Sequence record: MT764208.1
From: Escherichia phage JEP8
DNA length: 64,000 nucleotides
Direction: 5' to 3' (one strand)
The notes under the pieces were generated by a model, which ran no database searches, had not been told where the DNA came from, and saw only the letters and a list, made by a program, of their open reading frames with translations. The translations under genes were made by a program, and so were the position numbers. Position 1 is the stretch's first letter. The number at the start of each line of letters is the position of its first letter. Shown here piece after piece: positions 53,225 to 63,979 of this stretch.

Positions 53225-54616
53225 TCAAATATAGTCTACCCGATAACGTGCACGGGTAACACCCACATATAATAACTGCATTGCCAGTTCAAAGTCAACA
53301 TTATCTGTACACATGCAAGGAGTATACAGGAACACGCGGTCTACGCTGATCCCTTGTGACTTATGAATAGTGCAAGCTGGTAATGCTTTTACATTCAGGA
53401 ACATACGTTTCATCGTCCAGAAAGAATCCCAATCTGGTTTAAAGTTTGGATTCTCTTTCTTCATTTCGCGATATTGTCCGGCGACCGTATTCAGGTAGAT
53501 AGAGAAAATGTTCTTCTGTCGTTGTTCTGTCAGAATATTGATTTCTACTAAATCCGGTTTGTCGGTAGTGATTCCGACTGCATCTAAACCAACTTTCTGA
53601 TTCAGGATCTCTTTGACTTCGTCATTATCTACGCTTTCCACTTTAAGAGTATACCCTAAAACTGGTTGCGGATCTACCCCCGTGCAACGTAATGTAAATT
53701 CGCGCGGTATAACCTCTTTAACTCGGATCATCTCACCGTTGTTAAAAATCACATTAGGAATCTTCTTCCCGCGTTCATCTCGCAGATATTCGATCAACGG
53801 TTCCTGAGTAACCAGAATTTCATCTACAATGACCGGATCTTCTGTATTGTAAATGCGCTTACGCACAATTTCATTGAGTTTTTCGACACTCTTATTAGTG
53901 TAAGCCAGAATACGGTTTTCTAACAGGTCTTCCGGCGTTTTAACTGCTTCAAAATAACGAGTCATAAACTCCGGCAGAGTTGAGCTATGGAATACACCCT
54001 CGTTACCGCACTGCTTTTCGAATACCCATTTACCGTTACGGACAGCGGTCGCCACATCAATTATTGGTGCATTAGATCGTTTAATCTCTGTAAGTTCTAC
54101 ATTATGAAACCTTTCATCGGTGAAGAAAGGAGAGATCGACGTTGCACCGCTCGGATCAACTGGTCGTAACTGGTACAGATCACCCACGGCAATAATAACA
54201 ATTCGACCGTTGATACTCTTCATGAGAATATCAAATAGTTTCTTATCGACCATACTCGCTTCATCAACAATGATGATCTGAACATCATCTAGCTTAGGAG
54301 TATCTTTTTGCTCAAATACTTGAGTATCTTCATAGTTGGTCGGGTTTAGTCGCAGTAGTGCATGTAAAGTAAATGCTTGACGACCTACCGCTTTACTCAA
54401 AACTTTTTTAGCCTGGTGGGTAGGCGTTGCCAAAACCACACCAGTTACACCACGGCGGACCATTTCCTGAACAATGAATTTCATCATTGCGGTTTTACCA
54501 GTACCCGCCGCACCACGGACAGTTGTATGCTTCTTTTGTTCAATGCGTTTCATTAGAACATCAAAAGCATGTTTTTGCCCGTCTGTTAACATATCGAAAG
54601 TTAATACTCTGCTCAT
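53225..54616 (-). CDS. dda: Dda DNA helicase (SF1B)
   Basis: LT.GQK.AF...MK.I..KKH.T..G.AGTGKT, APTH.AKK.LSK, RSNAPIIDVAT.VRNGKW, LYVGVTR match T4 Dda. Confidence 0.92.
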   Translation of the reverse strand: MSRVLTFDMLTDGQKHAFDVLMKRIEQKKHTTVRGAAGTGKTAMMKFIVQEMVRRGVTGVVLATPTHQAKKVLSKAVGRQAFTLHALLRLNPTNYEDTQVFEQKDTPKLDDVQIIIVDEASMVDKKLFDILMKSINGRIVIIAVGDLYQLRPVDPSGATSISPFFTDERFHNVELTEIKRSNAPIIDVATAVRNGKWVFEKQCGNEGVFHSSTLPEFMTRYFEAVKTPEDLLENRILAYTNKSVEKLNEIVRKRIYNTEDPVIVDEILVTQEPLIEYLRDERGKKIPNVIFNNGEMIRVKEVIPREFTLRCTGVDPQPVLGYTLKVESVDNDEVKEILNQKVGLDAVGITTDKPDLVEINILTEQRQKNIFSIYLNTVAGQYREMKKENPNFKPDWDSFWTMKRMFLNVKALPACTIHKSQGISVDRVFLYTPCMCTDNVDFELAMQLLYVGVTRARYRVDYI

Positions 54617-54930
54617 TATCCTAAAATCCTCACCTTGCGAACACAGATAGTATTGAGTTCTCGCCGTACCCGTTCTTTTTCATATTCAGGAATTTTATAT
54701 TCGATACCATCCCGAACAATTTCAGAAGACCGGATTATGCCAAATTTTCGTTTAGGTACAACCTTGTATTTCGGTTCACCCGCCAATAGACTCTCACAAT
54801 AATCTATCTGATCACACATTGACGCTAACGCAGCATCATGTGTTTCGCAAGTTAGGACGCGACCCTTCGCGTCCACTGAGTATTGAAAGAATCCGTCTTT
54901 ATCACGATAACATACAGCAAATACATGCAT
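54616..54930 (-). CDS. hypothetical protein (104 aa)
   Basis: ORF upstream of dda, coupled start/stop. Confidence 0.45.
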   Translation of the reverse strand: MHVFAVCYRDKDGFFQYSVDAKGRVLTCETHDAALASMCDQIDYCESLLAGEPKYKVVPKRKFGIIRSSEIVRDGIEYKIPEYEKERVRRELNTICVRKVRILG

Positions 54931-55685
54931 TATAAACCTACCTTCGCTTTCATCAATTCAATCCACGACGCATCAATCGGAAGCCCGTATTTCACGCGTT
55001 CTTTTTGTGCTGGCGTTAAGTTCTCATACTTAGAAAGAGATTCAATCAAAACGCTGGTATATTTTAGCACGATTTCGGTATTGTTTGCAATAGCCTTAAG
55101 TTTTTCTTCTTTCTTGTTGATTTCGCTAAGGGCTTGCTTGAGATCTGCAATTTTCTGATAACGTTCTTCCATACGGAAGAGAGTATTTTTAATCGCTCGC
55201 TCGGCTGCCTCTGCTTTCTCCGGTTCGTTGTGCTTTTTATGGCGCTCGATTGCTAATTTCTTTTCTTCGATTGCCATTTCCTGATTTTTGATGCGATTCT
55301 CGTTAAGTTCGATCCACTCGATGTACTTCGCACGTAGGGCAATTTCATCATCAGAAAGTTTACCGTTAGTTCCTAGTTCCTGGATCTCTTTAAGAGATTC
55401 GATAGTGTGATTGCCACGGAAAGAATTGTATTTCAGTTTAACCGGAATTACATTGCCATCAACATATCCCAGATTGCAATCAATGCGCTCTAAGGAGAGT
55501 CCATCATCACCTTCACCGAAAGCCTCACCGGAATAGGCGCAATGAGTCTGACGGTAAATGTTACGCACAGTGACTAAGCTCATAGAGAAGTCTTTGTTGC
55601 GACGTGAAGCACCAGCCATGATAGAGTTCAGCCGGAAAACAACCAGCGCCAATTCTTCGTTAGATTTAAAAGCAAACAGTTTCAT
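54930..55685 (-). CDS. hypothetical coiled-coil protein (251 aa)
   Basis: ORF with promoter 55715-55743 and conserved RBS. Confidence 0.5.
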   Translation of the reverse strand: MKLFAFKSNEELALVVFRLNSIMAGASRRNKDFSMSLVTVRNIYRQTHCAYSGEAFGEGDDGLSLERIDCNLGYVDGNVIPVKLKYNSFRGNHTIESLKEIQELGTNGKLSDDEIALRAKYIEWIELNENRIKNQEMAIEEKKLAIERHKKHNEPEKAEAAERAIKNTLFRMEERYQKIADLKQALSEINKKEEKLKAIANNTEIVLKYTSVLIESLSKYENLTPAQKERVKYGLPIDASWIELMKAKVGL

Positions 55686-55714: not shown

Positions 55715-55743
55715 ATTATTGTCTATCTGGTTTGTGCTGTCAA
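55715..55743 (-). promoter_or_regulatory. early promoter TTGACA-N17-AATAAT
   Basis: drives 54930..55685. Confidence 0.5.
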
Positions 55744-55746
55744 CAC

Positions 55747-56250
55747 TTAAATTAAAGAAAATTTGTAAATCTCTATCAGATCGCCATTACACGCGTAAAC
55801 TTCCTCGATCTCATCAAGGATCATGGTCGTCCCTGTCTTGTATATGCACTCGCGCTCATCTGCCAACATAGCATACAAAGACAGTCGAGTAGTCGGATTG
55901 TCATACTCTTTAGACACCACTCGGTCAATAGCATGTTCGTAATAATTCATGCAAGGCTTGGTAGGTTTTATTGCAATAATCTTTCCTGTTGCATAAACAT
56001 CGGTTGCAAAGTCCTCTGCTGTTGATTGCAGTGGCGTAAAGCTCATAGGACGCTCTACAACGAAAGAATCGCCTACAATTAAGGTATCCAGCTTACGGCC
56101 TTCTCTTTTGCTCACACCGCGATACAAGGCTTCATGATGCACTAACCGCTCAGTCTTTTCAATCAATCCATTAAGGATCGACATATCGATATTTTCTTTA
56201 GAGTTCATCACCTCATCAATGATGTTAAGTTCTTCTGGTGTAAATTGCAT
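55747..56250 (-). CDS. hypothetical protein; possible ADP-ribosyltransferase fold
   Basis: ordered R (LYRGV) ... S-x-T (PMSFT/STAE) ... E-x-E (DERE) residues; sits in the region where I recall T4 modA/modB mapping; weak. Confidence 0.35.
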   Translation of the reverse strand: MQFTPEELNIIDEVMNSKENIDMSILNGLIEKTERLVHHEALYRGVSKREGRKLDTLIVGDSFVVERPMSFTPLQSTAEDFATDVYATGKIIAIKPTKPCMNYYEHAIDRVVSKEYDNPTTRLSLYAMLADERECIYKTGTTMILDEIEEVYACNGDLIEIYKFSLI

Positions 56251-56253
56251 AAT

Positions 56254-56283
56254 AAAAAAGCCTCCAATCTTTCGACGGGAGGC
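56254..56283 (-). terminator. hairpin plus U-run between gp56 and the ART-like gene; 3' arm contains GGAGG
   Basis: GCCTCC-N11-GGGAGGC followed by T6ATT then ATG; overlaps promoter 56284-56312. Confidence 0.45.
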
Positions 56284-56312
56284 ATAATAAAACCATGATA
56301 GAGTAGTGTCAA
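56284..56312 (-). promoter_or_regulatory. early promoter TTGACA-N17-TATTAT
   Basis: drives 55747..56250. Confidence 0.5.
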
Positions 56313-56319
56313 CTAATTT

Positions 56320-56844
56320 TTAGTAGCCGCGTTCTTGACGGGCGAAGTTTTCAGCATTTTTCAGATAGTACAGAATAAAGAGTTCTTGAGCGTCAATACC
56401 CAGCGGGATCATCTTTGACAGAATGAAGTGGATCGCGTCCACAAATTCAAATTTCACTTCAAGCTGATCTTCTGGTGACAGTTCAGAGAATTTACGCGCT
56501 CGCGCTTCCCCGTGGTTCTTTTTCCACATTTTCCAGATTGCACTTGCATCTTTACCATTGGACATTCCACCCAGCGATGTGTAAAGCTCTCGTGTTTCGT
56601 CTGCGATAGCGTCATCCATCCGTTGCATCCAATCCAGCATTTCACCGCAAGTCTCTAGCTTAGTTGGATTTGGGACCCAATCAAATTTTTCGGATAATGC
56701 AACCTGTAAACCAGTTTGCATTTCGAGCATCACCTGAAACGGATCTTTACCTTCTGCAATCGCGTGATGATATGCGGCGATAGCCGCGTCAATATTTTTT
56801 TCGTTAACCAGACCAGCACAAGAATTAAATTCTGACATATTCAC
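56320..56844 (-). CDS. 56: dCTP pyrophosphatase (T4 gp56 homolog)
   Basis: C-terminal YYLKN.ENFARQ.RGY and internal blocks match T4 gp56 as recalled; adjacent to gene 61. Confidence 0.8.
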   Translation of the reverse strand: MNMSEFNSCAGLVNEKNIDAAIAAYHHAIAEGKDPFQVMLEMQTGLQVALSEKFDWVPNPTKLETCGEMLDWMQRMDDAIADETRELYTSLGGMSNGKDASAIWKMWKKNHGEARARKFSELSPEDQLEVKFEFVDAIHFILSKMIPLGIDAQELFILYYLKNAENFARQERGY

Positions 56845-56852
56845 CTCATTAA

Positions 56853-57881
56853 TTAAAATTTACAATATTTCATAAACCGCATTTTAGCCATCAGACCTTG
56901 TACGGTGTTCTCTTTGATATATTCCATGATCTGGTCGCGTGTAGCGCCCTCGTCCTGAATCATGGCGTTAACGTCTTTAGAATGCCACGGACAACGATCC
57001 CACAAAACAATCTTTTCCCCTGCATTGATAAACTTTTCCAGTCGGTGCATTGTATCGGCAGACCGTGGTTCCGCATCAAGTACAAACACTCGCTGGTCTG
57101 GGAAAGGGATTTCATCTAATCCCAAAGTACCGCCAGTAATTGCACACCCGTTATCAATAAACAATGAATCGATCGGACCTTCTAAGAAATACACTGGTTT
57201 ACTCGGATCGGCGCGTTCAAGACCATAGACCTTACTCGCTAACTCATGAGTTTTAATCGTCATATATTTGGTCTTTCCGTAATCCTTTCTCAATGCTCGC
57301 CCCTGAATGGATTCTATCTTGTTCTCGCGGTTAAAGATAGGAATCACTAAACGCGGTTCCGGTTGTGGATTCTTGAAAGTATCAGCCTTAATGTGATTTG
57401 CTACCTTTTGCCATTCTCTCGTGAAATACAGAAGATCCCATTTATCGTGAGGAATACAGCGATCACTGACATACTTTATTATAGGATGATTAGCCGGAAG
57501 AGTATCTAACCTCTCGCAGAAAGGCAATGTTTGCACTTTCTTAATCTCCGGCTTTTCTACCTTTTTCAGTGGCTTGAACGTGGTGTTCTTGTGGTCGCCT
57601 TGTTCCTTCCGTCGTTCCATAAGCCATTCCCTGAATAGGTCCGGCTTATACTGTTTGAGAAATTCACCCAACGGCTGATTGTAGTTACAGTTGAAACATC
57701 CGGCTCGCAAACTATCCTTATAGGTATAGATACGGAATCGCGCTTGAGTATGATTTTTCTTTGAGTCACCGCAGATCGGACAACTACAGACCAGCGTAAA
57801 TGAGCTAGTATGCAACCGTTTAAAATTTCGTTCGCCGTATATGGCTTTTTCCGCTATTTCATAATCTGCGTAGTAAATCAT
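56853..57881 (-). CDS. 61: DNA primase (T4 gp61 homolog)
   Basis: 342 aa as in T4; N-terminal zinc ribbon (CSCPICGD...CFNC) and TOPRIM region. Confidence 0.88.
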   Translation of the reverse strand: MIYYADYEIAEKAIYGERNFKRLHTSSFTLVCSCPICGDSKKNHTQARFRIYTYKDSLRAGCFNCNYNQPLGEFLKQYKPDLFREWLMERRKEQGDHKNTTFKPLKKVEKPEIKKVQTLPFCERLDTLPANHPIIKYVSDRCIPHDKWDLLYFTREWQKVANHIKADTFKNPQPEPRLVIPIFNRENKIESIQGRALRKDYGKTKYMTIKTHELASKVYGLERADPSKPVYFLEGPIDSLFIDNGCAITGGTLGLDEIPFPDQRVFVLDAEPRSADTMHRLEKFINAGEKIVLWDRCPWHSKDVNAMIQDEGATRDQIMEYIKENTVQGLMAKMRFMKYCKF

Positions 57882-63409: not shown

Positions 63410-63979
63410 TTAAATGTCAAACAGGTCCGTAAGCGATGCCACCTTTTCATATTGCAGCTTTGCAGCCGTGGTAATGTTCTCCAGTGGTTTGACGAAAGTC
63501 TTATTAAACAACAAAGGCCAGTCTAACCACTTTAACACCTCGCTTTCAATCTCTGGAGGAATACGAGTACCGGACAACCAACCAAAACAGATTTCTCCAA
63601 ACGGATTTCGATCTTTCAGCGGTACAATCATAACCTTCTCGCCTTCACGAATCGGATCTAGTCCGAATTTTCGAGCATTACGATTATAACACAATACACT
63701 CTTAACCGCATACGGACAACCCTTAATCGGATACCCGTTTGAATCGCTGTATTTCTGTAGGTTGTTTGCAGATGATACCGCAGCAACATCAAGATAGTCA
63801 AGTTTTCTAAATTCTTGCTCAAAAATACCGTAGTATTCCTGCAATGACTCTTCACCTTCCTGCAACATACGGCGAATACATTCTTTCAGTGATTTCTGAC
63901 ATGCTTTCGGGGTGGAGCTACGTTGCGTTTCCAAGCCCATGATTTTTAGCTTAGGTTCAGCAAAGCGCGTTCCTTCCAT
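63410..63979 (-). CDS. hypothetical protein (189 aa; start near window end is uncertain)
   Basis: ORF at window edge; not similar to T4 beta-glucosyltransferase as recalled. Confidence 0.4.
   Translation of the reverse strand: MEGTRFAEPKLKIMGLETQRSSTPKACQKSLKECIRRMLQEGEESLQEYYGIFEQEFRKLDYLDVAAVSSANNLQKYSDSNGYPIKGCPYAVKSVLCYNRNARKFGLDPIREGEKVMIVPLKDRNPFGEICFGWLSGTRIPPEIESEVLKWLDWPLLFNKTFVKPLENITTAAKLQYEKVASLTDLFDI

Follow-up and report, generated by a model that had tools for sequence, protein, structure and literature searches.

Within 64,000 nucleotides (nt) of Escherichia phage JEP8 (sequence record MT764208.1; this whole stretch is called the window), a 167-residue open reading frame (ORF), here called mod, is preceded by a leader in which an early promoter directly adjoins a stem-loop that contains the Shine-Dalgarno (SD) sequence. 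By sequence identity the window is that of an RB49-like Krischvirus, a T4-type myovirus, because the 1.2 kb surrounding the mod ORF show 99.5% identity to Escherichia phage PHB13 and 98.9% to RB49. The locus is organised as follows, in the order of transcription:

56320-56844, minus strand: gene 56 (gp56), dCTPase/dUTPase-like, directly upstream of mod and the source of read-through transcripts
56284-56312, minus strand: sigma-70-type early promoter, with the -35 box TTGACA at 56312-56307, a 17-nt spacer and the -10 box TATTAT at 56289-56284
56260-56283, minus strand: leader stem-loop GCCUCC-C-GUC-GAAA-GAU-U-GGAGGC, beginning at the base that follows the -10 box (the 5' arm is GCCUCC, 56283-56278, and the 3' arm GGAGGC, 56265-56260; the inner stem, GUC/GAU, is closed by a GAAA loop)
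56276-56277, minus strand: predicted transcription start, 7-8 nt past the -10 box and beyond the 5' arm, placed by geometry
56251-56259, minus strand: U-run UUUUUUAUU (U6AUU), at once the putative terminator tail and the spacer between the SD and the ATG (56250)
55747-56250, minus strand: mod ORF, 167 residues, a predicted R-S-E ADP-ribosyltransferase of the Mod family (ModA/ModB-like), on the evidence of homology, motifs, predicted fold and the ratio of non-synonymous to synonymous substitution rates (dN/dS)

The promoter agrees with the consensus at 11 of 12 positions and scored highest when 6 kb were scanned. An A/T-rich stretch (aaaaattag) lies just upstream of it and overlaps the stop codon of gene 56. 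Within the leader, which measures 70 nt in all, the SD sequence GGAGG (56265-56261) is contained in the 3' arm of the hairpin, 10 nt before the ATG. RNAfold returns the hairpin as the local minimum-free-energy structure, at about -15 kcal/mol, and the SD is predicted to be paired in it (4/4); the fold of a 101-nt leader taken alone is only modestly unusual (z = -2.0). The features of an intrinsic terminator are present as well, with a GC-rich 6-bp stem and a 3-bp inner stem followed by U6AUU. A consensus terminator scanner did not call this hairpin, because of its internal mismatch and its apparent loop of 12 nt, and an Rfam search of the leader region gave chance-level matches only (E about 0.8). 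In the GEC-3S record, the promoter and its -10 and -35 boxes are annotated at identical coordinates, and in the Ec_Makalu_001 record a terminator with an embedded ribosome-binding site is annotated over the hairpin.

The calculated cost of opening the start site (positions -13 to +5) differs strongly between the two kinds of RNA that could carry it. In read-through RNA it amounts to 11.0 kcal/mol (gene calls across the window have a median of 4.5 kcal/mol and a standard deviation of 2.7), whereas an RNA beginning 7 nt past the -10 box requires 2.5 kcal/mol. Any plausible start falls within or after the 5' arm, and by geometry a start 5-9 nt past the -10 box would drop that arm. A preliminary description of this DNA had placed a promoter at 56284-56312, exactly where we find it, and a hairpin with a U-run and a GGAGG in its 3' arm about 9 nt before the ATG; the arrangement is confirmed, with a distance of 10 nt. 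It also had the promoter initiate inside the hairpin, and the layout is as described, with the start predicted at 56276-56277. Its suggestion that read-through transcripts would be terminated or translationally silenced finds support in this geometry and in the comparative leader data given below.

Two relatives of the JEP8 gene retain the stem. L004 (74% protein identity) has identical arms and, in addition, a C-to-A change that extends the stem. L005 (63% protein identity) reads GCCCCC...GGGGGC, a compensatory U-A to C-G change by which the stem is kept and the SD consensus is weakened to GGGGG. Over the leader itself (56251-56312, compared with positions 633-694 of L004), the JEP8 and L004 sequences are about 97% identical, with about 2 of 62 positions differing; their coding sequences are 70% identical and the synonymous rate (dS) is saturated. 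Such high identity could reflect very strong constraint, or the cassette could have been swapped recently through recombination, a process that has been proposed for PeSLs, a published class of promoter and stem-loop cassettes considered further below.

We compared the leaders of the first mod genes across T4-like phages, 23 distinct sequences representing at least 13 genera. An IMG/VR scan yielded 15 loci, and annotated phage records were added by hand. The sample covers T4 and its relatives, JS98/VR5/MX01, RB69, S16, myPSH1140, PEi26, Q7622, pzk-kv8, X20, Gravdalen, phiE142, Roth76, KpV477, phiR1-RT and the Krischvirus group. A hairpin joining the ribosome site to the -10 region is found in 23/23 of these leaders, with predicted energies of -14 to -26 kcal/mol. 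The sequences of its arms differ between genera and the pairing with SD/AUG is retained. In the Tevenvirinae, the 5' arm starts inside the -10 box of an early promoter of the form GTTTAC-N17/18-TAnnnT, and the 3' arm consists of the SD, the spacer and the AUG. In T4, UAUGAUAGCUUCUG pairs with CGGAGGCUAUCAUG, and the stretch of the hairpin that separates the -10 box from the loop reads AGCUUCUG. The Tevenvirinae hairpins are without a U-run and lie partly inside the coding sequence; SD and AUG are both predicted to be paired in all 16 Tevenvirinae-type leaders.

Opening energies across the leaders range from 8.7 to 22.3 kcal/mol for read-through RNA, compared with 2.5-8.4 kcal/mol for transcripts from the proximal promoter. 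Comparison leaders give 3.3-5.4 kcal/mol (modA genes with a promoter of their own) and 3.7-8.5 kcal/mol (srd). Among the 86 annotated T4 genes in positions 1-50,000, modB ranks first, at 16.4 kcal/mol against a median of 4.45, and stands above T4 genes known to be sequestered, namely 49 (14.5), I-TevII (13.0) and soc (7.7 kcal/mol). The hairpin tracks position, as the leader of the first mod gene, and not paralogue: the single mod gene of myPSH1140 groups with ModA and has the strongest hairpin of all.

Two side observations were made in the course of this comparison. In T4 (AF158101), the starts of motB.2 (8161) and 39.1 (5595) have opening energies of 15.0 and 13.0 kcal/mol, values near those of modB and gene 49, and these genes may hold similar, undescribed inhibitory structures. 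In phiE142 (1213-1347), a 45-residue modB remnant lies ahead of an intact modA-like gene; its early promoter is intact and the remnant is still preceded by a hairpin that covers SD and AUG, at -21 kcal/mol.

When 12 leaders are aligned in the T4 register, 86.7% of the cells pair, compared with at most 57% if the 3' partners are displaced 1-3 columns along; the fixed register suits most Tevenvirinae leaders, but a 2-nt insertion in pzk-kv8 moves its arms out of register, so these counts are understated. Compensatory, two-sided changes occur at 4 pairs, located between the -10 box and SD/AUG, where the sequence can vary freely. The -10 variants TATGAT, TAGTAT and TATAGT are met by complementary SD-AUG spacers, AUCAU, AUACUA and ACUAU.

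The protein encoded behind this leader carries the motifs LYRGV (R44), S70-F-T72 and D-E132-R-E134. It matches PHROG 832, 'RNA polymerase ADP-ribosylase' (E 1e-20), and BLASTP aligns it with T4 ModB at 33% identity across 113 residues (E 8e-11) and with T4 ModA at 23% identity across 159 residues (E 2e-6). Relatives were collected by a word-indexed protein search, which gave 3 and then 15 sequences. Comparing a profile of the Krischvirus clade with a profile of 15 Tevenvirinae Mod proteins by hhalign yields a probability of 99.3% (E 3.5e-20) over 164 of 167 residues. A database protein 99% identical to it (P0001) has a precomputed Pfam assignment to PF26816 (Mod_ADP_RT). Local Pfam and NCBIfam scans returned no match; they are uninformative here because the local copies contain no Mod model, and genuine T4 ModA and ModB likewise score nothing. 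A PDB sequence search gave no match up to E 10.

Whether 5, 12 or 17 Mod proteins are aligned, R44, G45, S70, E132 and E134 do not vary; at position 72, every aligned protein (n = 17) has S or T. R44-G45 is aligned with R73-G74 of ModB; ModB is inactivated by R73A, and ModA and ModB have been described as R-S-EXE enzymes (PMC10468400). We built an AlphaFold model on a shallow alignment of 12 sequences, with a mean predicted local distance difference test score (pLDDT) of 80.7, lower across residues 1-20 and 101-130, and a predicted template-modelling score (pTM) of 0.75. The model places R44 on strand 42-45, S70-F-T72 on strand 69-72, and E132-R-E134 just ahead of strand 135-137. With this model as query, each of the top 50 Foldseek matches in the PDB is an R-S-E ADP-ribosyltransferase (probability 1.0, E 3e-7 to 4e-5); they include Certhrax, BECa, CDTa, C3, VIP2, iota Ia, ExoT and HopU1. 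TM-scores are about 0.5-0.63 on the query and sequence identities to the matches 7-16%. The bacterial R-S-E toxins (Certhrax, C3, iota/CDTa/VIP2, ExoT, HopU1) share the order of R, S and ExE on the fold; unlike them, the JEP8 protein has no secretion or binding domains and would act as a phage early protein, not as a secreted toxin. The dN/dS ratio against the two metagenomic relatives (74% and 63% protein identity) is 0.09-0.14, and the gene is therefore under purifying selection.

These results support the view that the mod product is an arginine-specific R-S-E mono-ADP-ribosyltransferase of the T4 Mod family, its activity and targets being predicted from homology. The preliminary description had pointed to the ordered LYRGV, S-x-T and E-x-E residues of a 167-residue ORF, which are indeed there, and to an R-S-E ADP-ribosyltransferase, which the hhalign, PHROG 832 and Foldseek results bear out; its placing of T4 modA/modB in this region also holds: in JEP8, as in T4, gene 56 flanks the mod locus on one side and srd/dda.1/dda on the other.

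Compared with T4 ModB and ModA (PF26816), the JEP8 system shows homology over the full length, the same R, S-x-S/T and E-x-E residues, an early promoter directly upstream and the same neighbourhood. It differs in having a single mod gene instead of a modB-modA pair and in having no N-terminal extension of about 30 residues. The protein is 28% identical to T4 ModB, 24% to T4 ModA and 28% to either member of the JS98 pair, and in a neighbour-joining tree the Krischvirus Mod clade branches outside the ModA and ModB groups alike. For this reason the label 'modB' and the targets that go with it are not established, and the protein can be placed with neither ModA nor ModB. Those targets are S1, EF-Tu, trigger factor and RNAylation in the case of ModB, the RNA polymerase alpha subunit in that of ModA. 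The targets of ModB should not be presumed for the single Mod protein of RB49-like phages.

We propose that the mod leader is a gate formed by promoter, stem-loop and ribosome site, by which a Mod-family ADP-ribosyltransferase would be made early, from its own early promoter, and we put the probability of this at about 0.65. Read-through transcripts, coming from gene 56 here and from modA.2 in the Tevenvirinae, would fold a hairpin of the GCCUCC...GGAGGC type. In Krischvirus, hairpin and U-run would terminate the read-through RNA, and whatever RNA escaped termination would have its SD buried; in the Tevenvirinae, where the U-run is absent, the effect would be purely translational, with SD and AUG both paired. 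Transcripts from the gene's own promoter, starting within or after the 5' arm, would form no hairpin, would not be terminated and would present an open ribosome site. Production of the Mod enzyme would then be restricted to the time when its own early promoter fires, and host transcription and/or translation proteins would be modified. The likely benefit is that a toxic host-modifying enzyme would be limited to the brief period of early-promoter activity. Over-expressed ModB is lethal, and ModA production is very toxic to E. coli (PMC3014915; PMC2988021).

Several points weigh against this proposal. The JEP8 hairpin is short (6+3 bp) and the AUG of the window gene is unpaired. By opening energy, the mod start comes only fifth in a set of 113 crude gene calls; several of those placed above it are mis-called starts. 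The transcription start is a prediction from promoter spacing. SD sequestration would be redundant if termination were efficient. The hairpin arms adjoin or overlap the -10 box, the SD and the AUG, so that conservation of pairing is inflated and few columns are free to covary; the covariation score was beaten by only 3 of 500 shuffles, a figure that cannot be read as a probability, given the relatedness of the sequences and the fact that the arms are partly constrained by promoter and translation signals. As to the protein, ADP-ribosyltransferase activity is predicted from homology and motifs, and about 30 N-terminal residues of ModA/ModB are absent (167 residues against 200-207).

A close published parallel for the leader is the PeSL (promoter-early stem-loop) cassette of RB49 and phi1, which combines a consensus sigma-70-like early promoter and its A/T-rich stretch with a stem-loop, an SD and an ATG (PMC2839356). 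Five placements of the stem-loop around the promoter are distinguished, the fifth subclass having it downstream of the -10 box; at other PeSLs the stem-loop has been shown to terminate, the promoters to be very strong, and recombination, in the form of mini-circles, to occur (PMC2839356). The JEP8 leader fits the subclass with the stem-loop after the -10 box and a gap of about 70 nt (Arbiol et al. 2010; Comeau et al. 2014). It differs in that the SD itself makes up the stem's 3' arm, and most other cassettes of the window have unstructured leaders. The PeSL papers treat termination or attenuation and recombination, and leave occlusion of the ribosome site unmentioned.

Promoter matches of at least 11/12 number 37 on the minus strand of the window and 0 on the plus strand; examples on the minus strand have their -35 boxes at 689, 933, 1291, 1638, 2415, 4192, 5337, 5731, 14357, 16621, 21495, 23167 and 41052. 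Many of the window's cassettes share a near-identical, unstructured leader, ACACACAUCGAAAC...GGAGAAUCAA...AUG, also given as ACACACAUCGAAAC...(U)AGGAGAAUCAA..AUG, and form a PeSL-like repeat family. At three further promoters on the minus strand, with -35 boxes from 63420, 51948 and 49292, a GC-rich hairpin follows right after the -10 box and the SD lies outside the stem; these three hairpins are GGCGGGU...ACCCGCC, then UGCAGCCG...GCGGUUGCA, and GGGAGUCUCCC plus a U-run. The layout with a start inside a terminator thus appears to be reused in this window, and occlusion of the ribosome site to be specific to mod.

The alternative that survives best, although we consider it unlikely, is that the stem-loop does no more than end the gene 56 transcription unit, as an intrinsic terminator in a generic PeSL, its overlap with the SD being an accident of tight packing that has no translational role. 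The canonical GC stem with its U6 suits this explanation, as do the Ec_Makalu_001 annotation, which calls the hairpin a terminator, and the view of PeSL stem-loops as terminators or attenuators in papers that are silent on ribosome-site occlusion; the window hairpins that abut the -10 box at 63420 and 49292 leave the SD out. However, the homologous hairpins of the Tevenvirinae are without a U-run, pair both SD and AUG and cannot terminate, yet they are conserved with covariation. L005, moreover, keeps the pairing at the expense of the SD consensus, and the modA and srd leaders, which have the same type of promoter, are without such hairpins.

Considerably less probable is the explanation that the hairpin mainly sets the fate of the mRNA, either by shielding the GGAG of the SD from the RegB endoribonuclease or as a processing or stability element. 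GGAG is found in the 3' arm of nearly all leaders, and RegB cuts GGAG in early SD sequences (PMC1702504; PMC3014915). GGAG is, however, the SD core and hence expected; L005 carries GGGGG instead, and in the Tevenvirinae the AUG is paired as well, which is relevant to initiation and not to RegB.

We regard it as extremely unlikely that the inverted repeat acts as DNA, whether as an operator for a dimeric regulator or as a PeSL recombination hot spot. In its favour, PeSLs have been proposed as recombination sites for gene shuffling (PMC2839356), the repeat borders on the -10 box or overlaps it, and between the window and L004 the leader is far better conserved than the coding sequence. Yet G-U accounts for 41 of the 296 predicted pairs; in a DNA palindrome, or on the opposite strand, these would turn into A-C mismatches. 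The sense strand folds on average at -17.7 kcal/mol versus -13.5 kcal/mol for the antisense strand and is the more stable in 18 of 20 leaders. The G-U pairs and this asymmetry therefore indicate a structure of the mRNA-strand RNA and not a DNA palindrome, and the palindrome or operator reading was rejected on these grounds. The arms are also wholly different between genera while the SD/AUG pairing is kept, as suits a constraint on RNA but not a protein-binding site. An equally improbable alternative, that the mod protein keeps the ADP-ribosyltransferase fold without the activity, as a truncated decoy or a protein that binds nicotinamide adenine dinucleotide, could draw on its shortened N-terminus, on an identity to ModA/ModB of just 23-33% and on the lower pLDDT at residues 1-20 and 101-130, but fits poorly with invariant catalytic motif residues, strong purifying selection and homology that spans the full domain.

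The neighbourhood of mod in JEP8, together with gene 56, comprises the following features:

56853-57881, minus strand: primase gp61
55715-55743, minus strand: second early promoter, TTGACA-17-AATAAT, 3 nt past the mod stop codon, with an unstructured, hairpin-free leader, driving srd
54930-55685, minus strand: srd, downstream of mod
54616-54930, minus strand: dda.1/Y01A
53225-54616, minus strand: dda helicase

T4 has modB-modA at the equivalent place of its map, upstream of srd, dda.1 and dda. Because the srd promoter (55743-55715) sits just past the mod stop codon, mod is a one-gene unit with its own promoter; no terminator consisting of a hairpin and a U-run is evident in the short gap between the mod stop and this second promoter (55743). 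The Srd homologue (54930-55685, minus strand) matches PHROG 1400 (E 6e-74) and also HNH-endonuclease and endonuclease VII families (E 1e-12 to 1e-4), and its counterpart is labelled HNH endonuclease in one Klebsiella phage record. The 'anti-sigma factor' label of Srd may thus conceal a nuclease-like fold.

The mod gene is not new, being annotated across dozens of RB49-like genomes, and about 1,000 phage records contain a Mod homologue. The RB49 annotation names the 167-residue ORF 'modB, ModB ADP-ribosylase', and modB is likewise annotated in phi1 and GEC-3S. The promoter and the terminator are already annotated too, and the cassette class (PeSL) is published; the cross-genus mod hairpin is apparently undescribed. 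The accessible reviews and the PeSL papers make no mention of SD occlusion at mod genes, although an earlier description is still possible, and modB is not among the examples of start-site hairpins given in a 2010 review (PMC3014915).

The proposed mode of action is reminiscent of the T4 genes e, soc, 49 and I-TevI, where a late promoter lies in the 5' arm, upstream transcripts are sequestered and proximal ones are translated (PMC3014915). In these hairpins, as in those of I-TevII/III, Aeh1 mobE and segB, the SD and/or the AUG is paired in upstream transcripts, which for mod is a prediction. Further common traits with e, soc, 49 and I-TevI are a proximal promoter in or beside the 5' arm and conservation of the structures among related phages. 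The promoters differ: whereas late gp55-type TATAAATA promoters delay translation in those genes to late infection, mod uses an early sigma-70 promoter, by which translation would be limited to the first minutes, and at mod the TATAAATA type is absent, the -35 box being TTGACA or GTTTAC and the -10 box TAnnnT. A second difference is that the Krischvirus mod hairpin adds a U-run and could double as a terminator.

From this comparison we tentatively hypothesise, at somewhat less than even odds, that the head of the mod locus in enterobacterial T4-like phages, T4 included, is a conserved and undescribed translational gate, such that translation would never proceed from read-through RNA. In the same hypothesis, and with the same reserve, the gate would be the early-promoter counterpart of the late-promoter hairpins of e, soc, 49 and I-TevI, merged in Krischvirus with an intrinsic terminator.

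Both ModA and ModB are toxic enzymes that serve host takeover, and the 'RNAylating' enzyme discovered recently is ModB. In cloning or engineering of the mod region, the 5' arm of the hairpin should be retained or removed deliberately. How Mod synthesis is confined to the first minutes is left unexplained in the accessible reviews, and a hairpin gate would be a simple and testable answer. If true, the gating of translation by promoter choice, textbook knowledge for the late genes of T4, would reach an immediate-early gene.

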